Of a stretch of DNA of 64,000 bases, positions 41,128 through 48,600 are shown one piece after another. The notes below the pieces were generated by a model that had not been told where the DNA came from, ran no database searches, and saw only the letters and a list, made by a program, of their open reading frames with translations. The position numbers and the translations under genes were made by a program. The first letter of the stretch is position 1. Each line of letters begins with the position of its first letter. Source of the stretch: Candidatus Multivorans sp. (GTDB lineage Bacteria > Acidobacteriota > Thermoanaerobaculia > Multivoradales > Multivoraceae); assembly GCA_965247095.1 (NCBI GenBank), contig OZ251997.1, positions 3,328,001-3,392,000 of the forward strand, written 5' to 3'.

Positions 41128-42261
41128 ATGCAACTCGGCATCCTGGGCCTGCCCAAGGCCGGCAAGACGGCGCTGTTCAATGCGCTCACTGCCTCCCGGC
41201 AGGCGACCGGCAAGTTCCGGGCCTCGAACACCACGAACGTTGGAATCGCCCAGGTACGGGACCGGCGCCTGGAGAAGCTCCGGGATCTCTACCAGCCGCG
41301 GCGCTACGTGCCGGCGCAGGTCCGATGCGTCGATGTTCCCGGCATCGACCGGGGCCGGGGAGAGACCCTGGACCTGGCTGAACTGCGGATGATGGACGCC
41401 CTGGTCCACGTCGTGCGCGCCTTTGAGGACCCGGAACTCCTGCACCCGGCGGGTCGCATCGACCCGCAGCGCGACATCGCCACGATCGATCTGGAGCTGA
41501 TTCTCGCGGACCACGAGGTGGTGGAGCGGCGACTGGAGCGTCTCGATCAGGCGCAGAAGAGAGGCCTCACCGACCTGGAGAAGCGGGAGCGCGCGATGCT
41601 GTCGGACCGCATTCTGCCGGCGCTCGAGGCGGAAACACCGCTGCGCCTCATGGACCTCGACGCGGAGGACGAGAAGCGGCTGCGCGGCTACGGCCTCCTG
41701 TCCCGAAAGCCGATGCTGGTGGTGCTGAATGTCGACGAGGACGTGGCGGGCGACCCCGCTGCGGTGGCCGGGGTCGAAGCGCCGCCCGGGGCCGAACCCG
41801 GGTGGCGCGAAGCCGCGCCAGCCGCGAACCAGTCCGGGCGCTCGTCATCGAGCGCTCGGATGGACCTCCTTGCCGTGAGCGCTTGCCTGGAAGAGGAGAT
41901 CTCCCGTCTCGACCTGGCCGATCAGGGCGACTTCCTGGCCGAAGCGGGACTCGACCAGCCGAGTGCGGTCCGGGTGGTGCAGGCGGGCTACGAGCTGCTG
42001 GGGCTGATCTCCTTCTTCACCGTCGGCGACGACGAGGTCCGCGCGTGGACCATCCGCCGGGGCAGCGCGGCGGTGACCGCGGCGGGCGCCGTTCACTCCG
42101 ACATCGAGCGTGGCTTCATTCGCGCCGAGGTGACCGGGTGGCAGGAACTGATCGACGCCGGATCGCTGGCCGTCTGCCGCGAACGCGCGACCCTGCGCCT
42201 GGAGGGCAAGGGGTACCGTGTGCAGGACGGCGAGGTCGTCCACTTCCGGTTCAACGTGTAG
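41128..42261 (+). CDS. ychF: Ribosome-binding ATPase YchF
   Basis: GILGLPKAGKT, DVPG, LISFFTVGDDEVRAW, AGAVHSDIERGFIRAEV, EGKGYRVQDG. Confidence 0.93.
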   Translation: MQLGILGLPKAGKTALFNALTASRQATGKFRASNTTNVGIAQVRDRRLEKLRDLYQPRRYVPAQVRCVDVPGIDRGRGETLDLAELRMMDALVHVVRAFEDPELLHPAGRIDPQRDIATIDLELILADHEVVERRLERLDQAQKRGLTDLEKRERAMLSDRILPALEAETPLRLMDLDAEDEKRLRGYGLLSRKPMLVVLNVDEDVAGDPAAVAGVEAPPGAEPGWREAAPAANQSGRSSSSARMDLLAVSACLEEEISRLDLADQGDFLAEAGLDQPSAVRVVQAGYELLGLISFFTVGDDEVRAWTIRRGSAAVTAAGAVHSDIERGFIRAEVTGWQELIDAGSLAVCRERATLRLEGKGYRVQDGEVVHFRFNV

Positions 42262-42289
42262 TCCGGCGCGAAGAGGTAACCTGCGCTGG

Positions 42290-42991
42290 ATGGACCGGAG
42301 GGGACCTTTCCGGCTCGACGATCGCCGCATCGCCTTCCCTCCGCCGCGGTTGGCGGATCCAAGCGGCCTGCTCGCGGTGGGTGGAGGCCTCGAGCCGGAG
42401 CGGCTGCTCGCCGCCTACCGGTCCGGCATCTTCCCCTGGCCGCTGCTGGGTCCAGACGGGCCCATGCTGTGGTTCTCGCCCGATCCGCGTCTGGTGCTCT
42501 ATCCGGAGCGGTTCAGAATGTCGCGCAGTTTGCGGCGCGAACTCCGGCGCGACCCGTTCGAGGTCGCGATCGACACGCGCTTCAGAGAGGTCATTGTGGC
42601 CTGCGCCGAGAACCCCCGTCCCGGACAGGAGGGGAGCTGGATCACAGATCCGCTGATCGACGCGTTCGAGCGCCTGCACCGGCTCGGCCACGCTCACTCG
42701 ATCGAATGCCTCAAGGGCGGCGAGTTGGTGGGCGGCCTCTACGGGGTCTCGATCGGCGGAGCGTTCTTCGGTGAATCGATGTTCGCCCGCCGCTCCAACT
42801 CGTCCAAGATCGCGCTGGTTCACCTGGTTCGCCGCCTCGAACGGTGGGGCTACGCGTTCGTGGACTGCCAGCAGGTCACCGAGCATCTGCTCCGGTTCGG
42901 CGCCGAGGAGATCCCGCGCGGCCGCTTTCTGGACGAACTCGAAGCGGCTCTTAGGCTCCCCGGCCGTCCGGGTTCGTGGCGCTCCCCGTAG
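42290..42991 (+). CDS. aat: Leucyl/phenylalanyl-tRNA--protein transferase
   Basis: GLLAVGG, AYRSGIFPW, WFSPDPR, AHSIE, FFGESMF. Confidence 0.95.
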   Translation: MDRRGPFRLDDRRIAFPPPRLADPSGLLAVGGGLEPERLLAAYRSGIFPWPLLGPDGPMLWFSPDPRLVLYPERFRMSRSLRRELRRDPFEVAIDTRFREVIVACAENPRPGQEGSWITDPLIDAFERLHRLGHAHSIECLKGGELVGGLYGVSIGGAFFGESMFARRSNSSKIALVHLVRRLERWGYAFVDCQQVTEHLLRFGAEEIPRGRFLDELEAALRLPGRPGSWRSP

Positions 42992-42997
42992 CTGCGG

Positions 42998-43948
42998 TCA
43001 GGAGTACGGTTCCAGTTGCGTCAACCGGGTGAGGACCGCGTTGGCGATCTGTGAGCCCACCTCCGCCTCGAAGACGAGAATGTCGCTTTCGGCGCCGTCG
43101 TAGGACTCGCTCCAGAGTACGGTTCCGTCCTCGGCCAGGAGCAGGCGGGCCCAGACCCGGAGGCGATCCTGCTCCCGCTGAACCCGGCCGTCGAGCAGGT
43201 AGTCGGCTGAAAGCCCGTTCGCTCCGCCGCCGGCGCTTGGGAAGGGTCGGGCGTCGTACGCGACGACCGCCAGCCGATCGCCCGCCTGCTGGCCGAGCGA
43301 CGTGATGAGCTCCTGGGCCAGGCCCTGGCGGAACGGCTCGGCGCCGGACCATGTCTCCACCGCCGCGAAGGGCAGGACCGCCAGCACCTGCCGTGACGGT
43401 TCGCTCGCGGTGGATGGTCCGGAGTCCAGCGTGCGCCAGACGAAGATCGTGGCGACGATGCCGAGGGCCGCCCCGAGAGCGGCGAGCACGGCGCCGGGTC
43501 CTGACCGCCAGCGCCGGGCGGTGCCGCCCCTGCTGAGGGTCGGTTCGTCGCCGTCGTTGACGTCGCTGACGGGCTTCAGGAAGCGGTACCCGAGGCGCGG
43601 CAGCGTTTCGATGTACTCGGGTGTGTCGGCGCTGTCGCCAAGTGCGACCCGGATCCGCTTGACACAGGAGTTCATGCTCTGGTCGTACTCGACGTGGACT
43701 TCGTCGGGCCAGAGATGGCGGCGGACGGCCTCGCGCGAGACCACTGCGCCACGGTGCGCGATCAGTAACTCGAGGAGTCGGGCGGGTTGGGGCTGAAGCC
43801 GTACCGTGCGCCCGAGGCCGGAGAGTTCGAGGGTCTCGGGATCGAAGCGGAACTCGCCGAACTTAAGCCGGCGAGGGCGTGCAGGGAAGGTGCGGTCGGG
43901 TTTCGTGCCCAGGCGTCCCTCGTGCGACGAGTCGTTATCGCGCTGCAT
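42998..43948 (-). CDS. Membrane-anchored CadC/ToxR-like regulator (OmpR/PhoB-type wHTH + TM + TolB-like domain)
   Basis: FGEFRFD, LQPQPARLL, ALGDSADTPEYIETLPRLGYRF, TM helix, LAVLPF. Confidence 0.87.
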   Translation of the reverse strand: MQRDNDSSHEGRLGTKPDRTFPARPRRLKFGEFRFDPETLELSGLGRTVRLQPQPARLLELLIAHRGAVVSREAVRRHLWPDEVHVEYDQSMNSCVKRIRVALGDSADTPEYIETLPRLGYRFLKPVSDVNDGDEPTLSRGGTARRWRSGPGAVLAALGAALGIVATIFVWRTLDSGPSTASEPSRQVLAVLPFAAVETWSGAEPFRQGLAQELITSLGQQAGDRLAVVAYDARPFPSAGGGANGLSADYLLDGRVQREQDRLRVWARLLLAEDGTVLWSESYDGAESDILVFEAEVGSQIANAVLTRLTQLEPYS

Positions 43949-44081
43949 GAGCTTGCCCTTGGACTACTGCGAGTGAGCTGTTGTTTGGCGTTTTCCAGCC
44001 CCGAAAGTGGTGTTCCGAATTGGGGACCCTGGTTTTAGAGGACACAAAAGGACACTACGCACGAAGCATTCCGGGCGATGC

Positions 44082-44117
44082 GTGACAGTTGTGTGACCAG
44101 TTCGTGACCCCCGTGAC
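44082..44117 (-). promoter_or_regulatory. Tandem GTCAC direct repeats (Pho-box-like) upstream of the wHTH regulator
   Basis: Plus-strand GTGAC at 44082, 44093, 44104 and 44113 (spacings 11, 11, 9). Confidence 0.5.
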
Positions 44118-44409
44118 CTGCGCCGTCGCTTGCTATGGCAAGCGCGGACCCAAGCCTGGATCACTGTGCGGAGCTACTGGCGCCAGGGGAGCGACGGAGC
44201 GTCAGGTACCGCGATTTCGGCGGTCCGTTGGCTCTGAGGGAACATCGGATGCATCGCGTGTCCGAGTCCTGGCCGGCCCTGGCTTCTCGCGGTGCAACGC
44301 CTGGGCGGGAGCCGAACATTCCGGCCCCGGGCCTCGGCGTGTTTGTCAGGGGACGTAAATCCTTGGCACAGTCGTACTTACGGCGTCGGTGTGCTAGGTT
44401 CTGCGGGCC

Positions 44410-44428
44410 AAAAAAAGAGGATAGGGAC
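44410..44428 (-). terminator. U7 tract directly after the 3' strand of the putative ncRNA closing helix
   Basis: Minus strand reads GUCCCUAUCC-UC-UUUUUUU; A7 at 44410-44416 on plus. Confidence 0.55.
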
Positions 44429-45272
44429 CGCTCCGGGGTTCTCACCCGAACCGACCTTAGGTCTCTCATCCCTCGCTCGCGTTTCCTCAACCCTTCAGCT
44501 TGGCGGGCATCCGGTCGTGGAGCGCTTTGCGCGCCACCGATCCTTCCGTTCAGGCCTGGGCGCCCTCGCCTTGCGGCTCCGGCGGTGGAACCTTGCGGCC
44601 CCTCCAGCCCCGTCCGAGTTTGCCGGGACTCCCCTTCGCCTACCCGTTGCCTTCGGGTCTCCCGCTCCGGCTTGCGCCTTCGCATTCAACCCTCCGGCTC
44701 GGGTGGCCGAAAGGTCCGCGCCGTCGTTCCGCCATGGCCGGTTCCTCGGCTTGCGCCTCCGAACCGATCACTTTGCGGCCCGCCGTCGCGGGGACTCCCT
44801 GCCTCTCTCTCCGCCGACATGGCGCCTTTGGGGGTACTTCGTCGCTCAACTGGTCGGGTCTCACGACGAAGCCCCCGAAGCGTCTGCCGATGAAGCGCTT
44901 CAGTTAGCGATCAGCCTTCCGTTGCTGCCGGGCAACTTCCGACCGTTCGCCCCCCTGAAGCCGCCTCCCTGGTTCAGGCGCCACGAGGCTTGCGCCCCTC
45001 GGTGCCACTCCCGGGGAAGCCTTCGGCTACGGGAGTCACTCGCTAGCTGGAACTCCATGTCGTCGGGGTCGCTCCGGCTTGCGCCTCGGTTTCCCCGGCT
45101 CCAAATGGCTCCTGCCACCGAGCCCGGCTCTCAAGTCGTGACCTTCCTACCCTCGCTCTTCAAGTGCGCCCACCACGCGAACGTGACTTTCGCCCTTCTC
45201 AAGCTCCGATCTGAGGGCCTCGGCTCTTGGACCGGTGGATTGGGTTGCGATCCTTGGTCACAGTCCCTATCC
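44410..45272 (-). ncRNA. Putative large (~855 nt) highly structured non-coding RNA, family unassigned
   Basis: Own promoter, perfect 10-bp end-to-end complementarity (44419-44428 with 45263-45272), U7 tail, four exact GGCGCAAGCC hairpins plus other GNRA/UUCG loops, purine-rich minus strand, no credible ORF. Confidence 0.8.
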
Positions 45273-45279
45273 GCGAAAC

Positions 45280-45309
45280 AACGTATAGGGCGCCTGAAGG
45301 TTGTGTCAA
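45280..45309 (-). promoter_or_regulatory. sigma70-type promoter of the putative large ncRNA
   Basis: TTGACA (45309-45304) - 18 bp - TACGTT (45285-45280); predicted +1 near 45272-45273 coincides with the start of the closing helix. Confidence 0.7.
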
Positions 45310-45492
45310 GGGAAGGGCGGCGGACGGCCTCGGGCCGATGCTTGCGGGAGAGCCTTAACCGATTGAACCTCAGCAACTTGACCCTTGCAACCTTGAATTC
45401 GATCGGGTCGGTGACGGCTGCGGATTTCCTGCGGAATCGGGTGGCTGCCGCAGAAGCCGGCTCGTTTGCTCCCGCTTGCGGGGCGGCGCGGA

Positions 45493-45568
45493 TGGTGCCC
45501 AGGGGCGGATTCGAACCACCGACACCCTGATTTTCAGTCAGGTGCTCTACCGACTGAGCTACCTGGGC
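45493..45568 (-). tRNA. tRNA-Phe (GAA)
   Basis: Reverse complement GCCCAGGTAGCTCAGTCGGTAGAGC...CTGAAAA...GGTTCGAATCC...CTGGGCACCA; upstream TTGACT-N18-TAGAAC (45634-45605). Confidence 0.96.
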
Positions 45569-45671
45569 AAGTCGCGCGCGCCGGCCAGGGCGCTAGAGCA
45601 GCGTGTTCTAACAGGCATGCGGCGAGCCAGTCAATGGAGCGCCGGGTGCAGAACGACTAGAGTAGTGGACC

Positions 45672-48600
45672 ATGCGACAATCCAGAAGCGCCGTCCAGCG
45701 TAGACCTGCTCACCTTCCCGCGGACCGAAGGGGCTTCGGCGCGGGCTCGCGATCGGGCTTCCTGGTCGCCCTTACGGCCGCGTCGATCAGCCTGCTGACG
45801 ATGGGAGTTGAGGCGGCGCAAGGACAGCGCCTGCTGAGCCTGGGCTCTGAACCGGCGGAACCTCCAGTCGCCGAGGCCGCACGCATCGACCCGGTCGCGG
45901 GGCCCGTGACGGTGCAGGTCGATCTCGATCTGGTCCGTTCGGCGCCGTCTCGGCTGGAACTGCCGACTTCAGACGGTCGGGTGCTCGTCGCGGAGCGGAG
46001 CGTCTTCGAGGATCGCGGCAACGGCAACGTGATGTGGGCGGGCAGCTTTCCTGGAGCGGGCTACGAGAGCGTCGTCCTGACGGTGGAGGACGGTAGCTTT
46101 GTGGGGCGGTTCGGCGAACCGGGAGGCGCCAAGTTCCGAATCAGCGCGGATCCGTCAGGTCGCGGCAGGATGGTCGACACCGCGCGCACCGGGTGACGCC
46201 CCGGAGACCTTCTGTCCGGTCGGTCTGGAGCCCGACAGTCTGTCGCGGGTCGGCCCGGTAGAGCCGCGGCGCGTCGACCTGCAGCAGCGGGTGGCGAGTC
46301 CCCAAAGCCACGACCGGCTGGACATCCTGGTGCTTTACACGGCGCAGGCGGCGCGGAACTGGGCGAACCGCGGCGGCGCCGTGGCCTCGATCCGGAACGC
46401 CGGCGACTATCTCAACCTGGTGCTCCGTAACGGCCAGTTGGGAGTCGAAGCGAACATCGTCCACGTCGCCAGAGCGCCCGCTGCTCTCGAGGCCGTGGCC
46501 AGAGATGGTGTTGGCCCGTACGGCGGCAACCTGCTCACGCAACTGCGCTGGAACGGCGACGTCCTTCAACTACGAAGGCAGCACGATGCCGACCTGGTCC
46601 ATCTGTTCACGGGCGAGAGCACGAGACTGCTCCAGTTTTGCGGTTTCGCCTCCTTGCTGCCCCGCGACTGGACGGCTGACCGGTTCTCGCCCTTCGCTCA
46701 CGGCTGGACCACGAACGACTGTTCCGGCGACGATCTAATCTTCGCCCACGAGATCGGCCACGGATTGGGCGCCAACCACGACCCTCCGAATGCCACTCAG
46801 ACTCAGATTGAGCAGGCCGTAACGCCGTACGCATTCGGCCACGCCAACCAAGATCACATACCGAACGTCGGAACGCTCATGAGCTACCGCGGCCAGACGG
46901 AGCCGTACTTCTCGTCCGTGCGGATCAGGCCCAGGCGACGGACGATCGGCGTCGCTGGCGAGCAGGAGAACGAGCGCGCGCTTCGCAGCACCGTGAAGAT
47001 CGGCGTAGGCTACAGCGACGCGATACAGCCGCCGTCGGAGGACGCCCCCGCCGCGCCGACGAACGTTCGCGTCGAGGTAACCGGGGCGACATCAGCTCGC
47101 GTCAGTTGGGACGACAACTCGGACGATGAAGAGGGCTTTCGAGTCTGGGTTGCAGCAGCAGGGTGAACCGATCGCGGTCGGGCGATTGGTTGGCGCCGAC
47201 CAGGAGTCTTTCGAAGTCGATGACCTCGAGCTTGGCTTCAACTTCTTCTGGGTGACTTCGCACATCGGCAGCGCCCGTTCCTGGAGAACCAGCTTCGTGG
47301 ATGCCGTCGTGCCTGGGGCCGAGCCGGCCGCGCCGACGGATTTGAGCGTCACATCGTTCGGAAGCTTCGCGATCGTGACGTGGACCGACAACTCGGACGA
47401 CGAGACCGGCTTCGAAGTCCAGGTTCTGCGCGGGGGCGAACTCTGGTTCCGGGACGCCCTCCCCGCCGGTCAACGGTTCGCCATCGTCACGGGCCTTGAG
47501 CCAGGCGTTCGCTACGTCTATCGGGTGTCCGCGTACGGTAGTGGCGGCTTGTCCTGGAGCGAGAACGTGGCCGTGGTGTCGCCGGAGCGTAGCGGGCCCG
47601 CGCCACCCACGAATCTCCGCGCGACCCTGACCGACGCCACCTCGGTTCGCCTGACCTGGACCGACAACTCGGCCGACGAGGTCGGTTTTCAGGTTCGGGC
47701 CGCCGTCTGGGGTTGGTCCGAGTTCTTCCCGGTTGACGCCGACACGGAATCCATCGAGATTCCCGGGCTGGCCCGAGGCGGTCGCTATTTCTTCAGCGTG
47801 GTGGCCGAGGACGCCGAGGGACTCACCGGGTTGAGTGACACCCTGATCGTCCCGCTCGGTGTGGGCGGCCGGGGACCGCGGGCGCCGAGGCGTCTTCGAG
47901 CGACACCGATCGACCCGGTCTCCGCGCGACTGACGTGGGAGGACGACTCGACGGACGAACTGGGCTTCGAGATCCAGGTCCGGCAGTTCGGCGACTGGGG
48001 GCGAACCGCCCTGGTCGGTGCCAACGAGGAGGCCTTTCTGCTGAGAGGCCTGACGCCCGGGAGCGTCGACGACTACCGCGTCTTCGCGTACAACGACACC
48101 GGATTCTCCGGTGCCAGCAACTCCGTGACCGTGAAACTACGCGGGGGCACCGTCCCCACGGAGTTCACGGCGGCGCCATCGGGCGCCTCTGCAATCGACC
48201 TGAAGTGGTCCGGGAGGTGGGCCCAGAGGTCGCTTGGCCTTGTCTCGGTCGAGGGGCGCAACCCCGAATCCGGCTGGGTTGAACTGGTGACAGCCGAAGC
48301 CGCGGCCGGTTCGGTTCAGGTCACCGGTCTGATGACCGACACCCCCTACACTTTCCGTCTCGCAGCGTTGGCCGGCGGCTCACGGTCGTTCTCCGAGGAA
48401 GCCAGCGCGACCACGGGCGCCTACCGCGACGCCTGCCGTACAGGCGGGCAGTACCTGTGCCTGCGGGATGGCCGCTTCGAGGTGCAGGCGCACTGGACGA
48501 ACCCGGACATAGTGGGTGACTACGGCTTCGGCACCGGGGTTCCCATCGACTTTTCCGACGAATCGGGTCTGTTCTGGTTCTTCGAGCCGAACAACGTGGA

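Follow-up and report, generated by a model that had tools for sequence, protein, structure and literature searches.

The locus and its repeated hairpins

The stretch of DNA considered here (the window, 64 kb of contig OZ251997.1, to whose positions all coordinates refer unless a genome position is named) comes from a 'Candidatus Multivorans' genome of 4.62 Mb and 67.7% GC. Its minus strand carries the gene of a large non-coding RNA, and this RNA bears six short hairpins, here called modules, which are capped by GNRA tetraloops and most often by GCAA. Four exact copies of the hairpin GGC-GCAA-GCC, a copy with the strands of the stem swapped, a shorter copy and purine-rich flanks had been described within a large RNA in an earlier sequence-only reading of the window, and all of them lie where they had been claimed. 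The RNA and its modules are the following.

~45273 to 44410 (~864 nucleotides, nt), minus strand: large non-coding RNA that bears all modules, a conserved block in 36 distinct homologues
45076..45085, minus strand: module M1, GGC-GCAA-GCC (in most relatives CC-GA-GGC-GCAA-GCC-GA-GG)
44985..44998, minus strand: module M2, GGGGC-GCAA-GCCUC, in the window a more regular 5-bp stem
44739..44766, minus strand: M3 arm, CGGUUC-GGA-GGC-GCAA-GCC-GAG-GAACCG
44655..44692, minus strand: M4 arm, GGGUU-GAA-UGC-GAA-GGC-GCAA-GCC-GGA-GCG-GGA-GACCC, with two stacked 3x3 GAA/GGA loops
44561..44584, minus strand: M5 arm, the 'swapped' stem, CGCC-GGA-GCC-GCAA-GGC-GAG-GGCG
44587..44602, minus strand: module M6, GGGGCC-GCAA-GGUUCC, a plain 6-bp stem

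Read as plus-strand letters, the exact copies are the 10-mer GGCTTGCGCC, found on that strand at 44669, 44748, 44987 and 45076; the rest of the window has none. All four fall within 420 nt; the chance expectation is 0.39 (standard deviation 0.57), and four copies were reached in none of 100 dinucleotide shuffles. The looser pattern SSCTTGCGSS is not enriched overall (8 matches in the window vs 7.94 expected), and five of its eight matches fall within 44568-45085, among them the swapped-stem copy, GCCTTGCGGC in plus-strand letters (44568-44577). The short CC-GCAA-GG at 44591-44598 is the tip of the 6-bp stem of M6. Around the copies at 44748 and 44568 the flanks are GGA and GAG, and around those at 45076 and 44669 they are (C)GA or GAA and GGAG. 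Within the RNA, GCAA is found 12 times, against 3.8 +/- 1.7 in 500 dinucleotide shuffles of which none reached 12, and GNRA loops whose stems have at least 3 bp are found 10 times, against 2.39 +/- 1.51 in shuffles (maximum 9).

In the minimum free energy (MFE) fold of the window copy, and likewise in relatives, each module is an arm tip. By a shared design, a helix leads into a symmetric internal loop rich in purines, which is followed by a clamp of 3 G-C bp (mostly GGC/GCC) and the GNRA loop. The internal loops are 2x2 or 3x3 and could form tandem G.A pairs; in clade 2 of the homologues, M2 too is an arm resembling GCC-GAAG-GGC-GAAA-GCC-GGAC-GGC. With high confidence, the repeated hairpins are thus taken to cap helical arms at the periphery of a large structured non-coding RNA that is new.

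The modules have just 15-17 nt in common (the spacing from M4 at 44669 to M3 at 44748 is 79 nt) and Tandem Repeats Finder reports no tandem repeat among the arms; therefore, they did not arise by recent duplication. A perfect 17-nt direct repeat (44663-44679 and 45070-45086) joins the cores of M4 and M1 including the 3′ flank. The M1 flank reads GAGGCA or GAGGCG in close relatives, vs GGAGCG in the window, so this identity is specific to the window's genome, and it might reflect conversion between the two arms. Two further local changes were seen in homologues, specifically an additional 17 nt in the M1 arm of L018 that form a hairpin (columns 263-279 of alignment A1, which has 30 rows) and a duplicated CCUC-U-tract at the 3′ end of L028 (A1 columns 946-960).

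Conservation and covariation

Across the 36 homologues, the loop is GNRA in all 154 module instances (129 GCAA, 23 GAAA and 2 GCGA). Both M1 and M2 are present in 36/36 homologues, M1 with 35 GCAA and one GCGA loop and with a UGC/GCA stem in the most distant homologue, and M2 with 15 GCAA and 21 GAAA loops and with a GAC/GUC stem in five. M3 is present in 24/36 (23 GCAA, 1 GAAA), M4 in 23/36 (22 GCAA, 1 GCGA; stem variants AGC/GCU, GGC/GCU and AAC/GUU), M5 in 18/36 (all GCAA; stem GUC/GAC in three and GUC/GGC in one) and M6 in 17/36 (16 GCAA, 1 GAAA). The helices below the loops covary: this is seen in the closing helix of the M1 arm (helices 13-15), in the M2 arm helix (A1 columns 316-322/370-376; 100% paired, three pairs with compensatory change), in the outer helix of M3 (helix 27) and in the M4 arm (helix 32; 100% paired, two compensatory pairs).

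When 90 distinct 26-nt instances are pooled in a module alignment (A3), which puts paralogous arms together with orthologues, 91.1% of cells are paired, vs 70.1% after shuffling and 20-37% with slid partners; the inner stem is 99.3% paired, and its pairs 9/18 and 10/17 change on both sides. For the whole RNA, aligned over 30 homologues, the MFE pairs of the window copy are kept in 90.7% of cells vs 34-45% in slid controls, and 32 pairs show compensatory change vs 8-14 in slid controls and 21 +/- 2.6 in shuffles, a generous control in which 0/500 reached 32. Most of this signal comes from the arm helices.

The module within a large RNA is thereby borne out as a folded and conserved element, its pairing and its GNRA loop both being kept in homologues. 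The sequence-only reading had also taken the swapped stem for a compensatory change within one molecule. Stems do covary between orthologues, and the valid changes are those of M2 from GGC/GCC to GAC/GUC, of M4 to AGC/GCU and AAC/GUU, of M5 from GCC/GGC to GUC/GAC and of M1 to UGC/GCA; the swap itself, however, compares paralogous arms and is not strict covariation. Selection is on the loop and the pairing, not on the letters of the stem.

Confinement of the module to one RNA

R2, a covariance model built from the module (26 positions, 6 pairs), scores the five trained modules of its own genome at 26.8-29.5 bits, one unrelated site at 28.2 bits and the next at 19.3 bits. Over 41 genomes of the genus, 99 of the 105 matches at E<=0.05 fall within the RNA locus and six elsewhere; most in-locus matches are training rows, and the informative figure is the scarcity of outside matches. 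Among the six genomes of the genus that lack the RNA, five have no match and G003 has one. The module is thus confined to one RNA, and it is neither dispersed in the manner of repetitive extragenic palindromic (REP) sequences nor unconserved or unfolded in homologues, the two outcomes that had been named beforehand as refuting the claim.

The 10-mer GGCTTGCGCC occurs 39 times on both strands of the genome, with four copies inside the RNA, nine in an element present in nine copies and 26 as scattered singles. The 35 copies outside the RNA do not cluster, and none has three purines on both sides. The nine-copy element lies outside the window and has identical 10-nt flanks on either side of the 10-mer in all copies (genome positions 170450, 1553904, 1833896, 2242164, 2603413, 2672806, 3873294, 4277040 and one more); it is dispersed, possibly an insertion sequence, and has no relation to the RNA. 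The unrelated site of 28.2 bits is a module-like GCGCC-GA-GCC-GCAA-GGC-AA-GGCGC found in two genomes (G000:C1:1104945-1104970, equivalent to L089:1446-1471, and G035:C1:938938-938963); at 1104945-1104970 it has no Rfam match and resembles part of a coding region.

These counts bear on the idea that the hairpins are no RNA motif but part of a protein-coding region or of a repeat at the level of DNA, be it REP-like or mobile. Like REP and other dispersed palindromic repeats, the module is a short, GC-rich inverted repeat in several copies; unlike them, it is confined to one transcript instead of being scattered between genes, and it is conserved as RNA pairing. A REP-like dispersed repeat was rejected, with 4/39 of the 10-mers in the RNA, nine in one element, the rest single, and one comparable R2 site outside. 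The same idea could draw on a 412-codon plus-strand frame at 44292-45530 and on the presence of the RNA gene, next to a tRNA gene, as one discrete indel of ~1165 nt (see below), but the module is not dispersed, the locus is single-copy in the genome, and the RNA contigs described below stop at the borders of the RNA. No Pfam match was found for the three open reading frames (ORFs) that overlap the RNA, the 412-codon frame included, and the longest open frame varies in strand, frame and length (107-285 codons) among the 36 homologues. Neither the 83-nt nor the 164-nt indel has a length divisible by three, and many changes from G-C to G-U are compatible with the minus strand only. A protein-coding region was rejected as well, on the lack of both a Pfam match and a conserved open frame. 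Refuted as far as the analysis reaches, an explanation at the level of DNA or protein is very improbable.

Arm cassettes and length classes

The homologues fall into five length classes (611-614, 689-691, 708, 776-794 and 854-860 nt). The 611-614-nt forms have M1 and M2 only, the 776-794-nt forms M1 to M4 and the 854-860-nt forms (the window copy, at 856 nt, among them) M1 to M6, while the 708-nt class is the most distant form, with GCAA arms of its own. Two cassettes underlie differences between them.

44629..44792 (~164 nt), minus strand: cassette with the M3 and M4 arms, exactly absent from L013 and absent together with more sequence from the 611-614-nt forms
44539..44621 (~83 nt), minus strand: cassette with M6 and M5, absent from all of clade 2

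In a tree of the shared core, the two-module forms are nested in two places among four-module forms, and L013, which lacks exactly the 164-nt M3 and M4 cassette, is nested among six-module forms; given these nested positions, loss accounts for the short forms. A natural variant without the M4 arm is represented by a metatranscriptome contig (run X11, depth 2.4) in which 97 nt (44609-44705) are left out.

That arms can be dispensed with would suit an explanation in which the hairpins have no partner at all. GNRA loops on G-C clamps would then be very stable caps employed again and again by a GC-rich RNA, their likeness stemming from thermodynamics and old duplication, in keeping with the mere 15-17 nt that the modules share and with the presence of UUCG-type caps in the same RNA. 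However, all 154 loops stay GNRA, and 129 of them exactly GCAA, despite change in the stem, whereas stability alone would tolerate UNCG or other GNRA loops; the purine-rich loops next to the clamp, moreover, cost stability and are kept nonetheless. On this evidence partnerless caps are an unlikely explanation.

The RNA that carries the modules

The borders of the RNA are marked by conserved sequences, which are listed here together with a hairpin from its interior and the neighbouring tRNA gene.

45304..45309, minus strand: -35-like box TTGACA (A1 columns 2-7, in register in 29/30 rows)
45280..45285, minus strand: -10-like box TACGTT, 18 nt after the -35 box (A1 columns 26-31; T26, A27, T30 and T31 invariant)
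45260..45272, minus strand: predicted 5′ strand of a closing helix, GGAUAGGGACUGU, pairing with 44419-44431 in RNAalifold and in the MFE fold
44921..44936, minus strand: hairpin GUUGC-CCGGCA-GCAAC, with the palindrome CCGG in its loop
44419..44431, minus strand: predicted 3′ strand of the closing helix, GCGGUCCCUAUCC (RNAalifold and MFE fold), followed by UC and the U-tract
44410..44416, minus strand: U-tract, putative 3′ end, kept in 30/30 A1 rows
45496..45568, minus strand: tRNA-Phe(GAA), immediately upstream of the RNA (context only)

A simple promoter scan did not call the -35 and -10 boxes (the -10-like box fails the 9-of-12 rule), and a terminator scan did not call the U-tract, because the stem that precedes it is long-range. 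We infer from their conservation that the promoter-like boxes and the U-tract are putative signals of the RNA's own. The two ends are predicted to pair, and closure of the RNA by this helix is plausible, if unproven. The CCGG-loop hairpin is strongly conserved: its 11-mer UGCCCGGCAGC is found in 35/36 homologues, and its stem is 99.3% paired with one compensatory pair (helix 23). It may be conjectured that its loop is self-kissing.

The window copy has an MFE of -426.5 kcal/mol vs -380.6 +/- 6.75 for 20 shuffles (z = -6.8). By informal usage, a 'large ornate bacterial RNA' is longer than 500 nt, non-coding and of conserved complex structure, and the present RNA answers to this description with 611-860 nt, the z-score just given and conserved pairing. 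A brute-force listing of all covarying helices was noisy (one genus, many G-U pairs) and only local arm helices stood out. Since the long-range pairings proposed by RNAalifold disagree, only the local arms are claimed with confidence.

No Rfam family accounts for the RNA. A scan (cmscan) of 43800-45800 with 4227 Rfam families at E<=10 returned just the tRNA and three weak rows at chance level, and at gathering thresholds, too, only tRNA was matched. RNase P RNA in disguise was ruled out, the genome's RNase P RNA being at 1161798-1162214. A leader of the downstream regulator gene was also rejected, given the U-tract of the RNA itself, a gap of 460 nt, RNA contigs that end before the gap, and the persistence of the gene where the RNA is missing.

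Distribution and loss of the RNA

The RNA is present in 35/41 other genomes of the genus (metagenome-assembled genomes, MAGs, of the 'Ca. Multivorans' type, Thermoanaerobaculia), as detected by BLAST and by R1, a covariance model of its 136-position core domain; both show it as single-copy. R1 detected no RNA in 15 genomes from 12 other genera of the family, none was found in 130 genomes from 66 other genera of the class, and BLAST gave no wider homologue in 24 genomes of the order. An exact search with the invariant 20-mer of the 5′ end retrieved 31 species records, all from the same clade, and two metagenome contigs; the record titles are those of MAGs of 'Candidatus Multivorans', Thermoanaerobaculia, Holophagales or Acidobacteria, many with sponge-type sample labels.

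Completeness is 94-98% for the six RNA-less genomes of the genus, four of which are closed. In four RNA-less genomes (loci L084-L087) the tRNA-Phe gene and the downstream Trans_reg_C gene are still neighbours, and G003 has ~25 nt where the window has ~1165 nt (45487-44323). This makes the RNA gene a discrete indel; the insertion that carries it has no ORF. The Trans_reg_C protein is the only conserved neighbour, being encoded downstream in 11/11 relatives' loci with enough flank, and it also occurs in RNA-less genomes. Likewise, the tRNA-Phe gene adjoins the RNA in 8/10 relatives' loci checked and occurs in RNA-less genomes too. In a tree of the neighbour protein, the RNA-less G003 and G077 group with the carrier L013 (support 0.976) inside a clade of carriers (support 0.992), from which it follows that they lost the RNA, although a single-gene tree is a pointer only. 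With both arms and the whole RNA repeatedly lost, the modules are accessory rather than essential.

L013, the carrier that groups with two RNA-less genomes, has itself lost the M3 and M4 cassette, and the RNA may be decaying in the lineage of L013, G003 and G077. A second fragment of 60 nt, far from the RNA locus, was seen in the close relative G035 (L080:533-592; C1:1853032-1853091) and is 92% identical to 44506-44566 of the window. The only trace outside the genus is a 41-nt stretch in G071, of another genus of the family (L079:970-1010), which is 88% identical to the 3′ end region of the RNA (~44424-44465); R1 has no match in G071. In the window, a gene for leucyl/phenylalanyl-tRNA protein transferase (42218-42991, plus strand) lies 2.5 kb from the tRNA-Phe gene (45496-45568, minus strand), which is probably a coincidence.

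Transcription

Eight RNA runs (four studies) contain part of the RNA stretch. Of these, four runs of sponge metatranscriptomes, drawn from three studies, were mapped on 43400-46300, and their contigs cover just ~44430-45272; one 419-nt contig ends at 45272, the predicted start of the RNA, and 2499 contigs matched in one run. The summed k-mer depth peaks at 6.1e5, 2.6e5, 1.1e4 and 2.7e3 in the four runs. Contig cover is zero in all four at 43400-44369, 45340-45436 and 45631-46018, the tRNA bins have low depth, and one run has a depth of 1.7 in the bin 46019-46115; the uncovered flanks rest on contigs only, and the neighbours are not thereby shown to be silent. DNA contamination is an unlikely source, since it would cover the flanks too. 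The RNA is transcribed, and it appears to be very abundant in sponge metatranscriptomes.

Abundance of this kind would also suit a binding platform for a protein, and the modules could be repeated protein-binding sites that make the RNA a scaffold or sponge, with the internal loop and GNRA tip being recognised and the copy number (2-6) setting the capacity. Such sites would be in line with the very high k-mer depth of the metatranscriptome contigs, with module numbers that differ between close species, and with purine-rich flanks conserved beside a stem whose loop is always GNRA; peptides are known to bind both purine-rich internal loops and GNRA-like folds. On the other hand, there is no candidate protein; the insertion that carries the RNA is without an ORF, and the sole conserved neighbour, the Trans_reg_C protein, is encoded in RNA-less genomes as well. 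The flanks also vary by arm (GGA/GAG, GAA/GGA, GA/GA, and a regular helix in M2 and M6), which is loose for one sequence-specific site.

A simple sponge, one of the roles offered by the sequence-only reading, is opposed by composition, as GGA (33 vs 32.4 +/- 4.0 in dinucleotide shuffles), GGAG (17 vs 14.1 +/- 3.1) and GGAGG (4 vs 5.1 +/- 2.1) are not enriched. A sponge of the CsrA type or the Shine-Dalgarno type was accordingly rejected, and protein sites, if present, are not of the CsrB/Rsm type. Like CsrB and RsmZ, the RNA repeats a short motif within one abundant molecule, with a copy number that varies between relatives; unlike in these, the defining GGA loop motifs are not enriched, the repeated unit is a closed GNRA hairpin instead of an exposed GGA, and the molecule has a global structure and two to three times their size. 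All in all, protein-binding sites are possible but rather unlikely.

Arms as possible docking elements

The explanation that best fits the observations as a whole, and which is given about an even chance, is that GNRA-tipped arms of a new non-coding RNA serve as docking elements. A-minor tertiary contacts are common for GNRA loops, and by analogy a role of the tips in RNA-RNA docking is proposed, tentatively and with slightly less assurance than the explanation as a whole. Rigid GNRA tips would act as A-minor donors that dock into helices, either elsewhere in the same molecule, where they would stabilise the fold, or in neighbouring copies, where they would mediate assembly. Arm number would tune stability or valency. 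One region of the RNA takes up or sheds arms as cassettes, giving rise to species with 2, 4 or 6 modules. Within docking, intermolecular assembly is the unlikely branch.

Several points weigh against docking and against the fold on which it depends. No receptor was identified: the classical 11-nt GAAA receptor, searched in the form which we take to be its motif, is absent from the homologues, one half of it occurring in 1/36 and the other in 0/36. The positions that change along with the switch of M2 from GCAA to GAAA offer nothing interpretable, just lineage noise. At least three losses of M3 together with M4 took place, and an entire clade is without M5 and M6, so contacts of the tips are either dispensable or contained within the same cassette; the entire RNA is missing from 6/41 genomes of the genus, at least two of them nested among carriers. 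High abundance and a variable number of motif copies equally suit a protein sponge or scaffold. As to the fold, the homologues are all of one genus, and their kinship inflates the shuffle statistics. The long-range solutions of RNAalifold differ between two alignments, and long-range helices hardly vary and are hence unproven; this includes the closing helix, whose 13 pairs are almost invariant across homologues, so that covariation neither supports nor contradicts it. Finally, the transcript evidence consists of contigs, which cannot give ends, strand or expression level, from runs chosen for holding the RNA stretch.

A bolder version of docking is a self-assembling particle made of RNA only, in which two to six rigid GCAA-tipped arms, along with the CCGG loop as a self-kissing loop, would link copies into a defined homo-oligomer, and arm number would set the geometry or size of the assembly across symbiont species. 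This is an improbable outcome. If true, OLE, ROOL and GOLLD would be joined by a fourth RNA assembly that occurs in nature. It would be the first known in the Acidobacteriota and in an animal symbiont, and its variants of differing valency would allow natural forms to be compared.

Relation to known RNAs

Short GNRA-capped stems on large RNAs are familiar. In group I and group II introns and in RNase P RNA, GNRA-capped peripheral arms make tetraloop-receptor contacts, vary between lineages, and keep the loop while the stem covaries. The present arms are alike in being short, GNRA-capped peripheral stems on a large RNA, variable by lineage and with covarying stems; they differ in that no intron or RNase P model matches, the 11-nt receptor is missing and no catalytic core is recognised.

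The closest comparison is with GOLLD, ROOL and OLE, the three large bacterial RNAs whose structures have been solved to date, which assemble into homo-oligomers through A-minor contacts and kissing loops (Kretsch et al., Nature 2025, PMC12286853); ROOL often lies near tRNA islands, according to the same paper. Like these, the present RNA is 600-860 nt long, non-coding and abundant, and has a dense conserved secondary structure. The likeness extends to an RNA gene beside a tRNA gene and to peripheral stems that are not always conserved; also, the adenine-rich loops seen here would be capable of A-minor contacts like those by which the complexes of that paper are held together. Unlike them, it has no Rfam model match at E<=10 (nor do raiA or HEARO match), is limited to one genus of Thermoanaerobaculia, and is chromosomal and single-copy with no phage context seen. 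A near-identical GCAA module is repeated in it, which those families are not known to share; the words 'tetraloop' and 'GNRA' occur 0 times in the main text of PMC12286853.

A published description of the RNA was not found in the full-text literature, to which most subscription journals do not contribute, such that an earlier description is possible. Both the GNRA hairpin and the large ornate bacterial RNA are known kinds, and it is the RNA family itself that appears to be new.

Only a few bacterial RNAs that are large, highly structured and of obscure function have been described, and several of them proved to be RNA-only assemblies. The present family offers a natural experiment in this respect, as close species have 2, 4 or 6 GNRA modules and some are without the RNA, which makes the role of multivalent tetraloop arms testable. 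For the organism, a sponge-associated member of the Acidobacteriota, it is possibly a major RNA of an uncultured animal symbiont.

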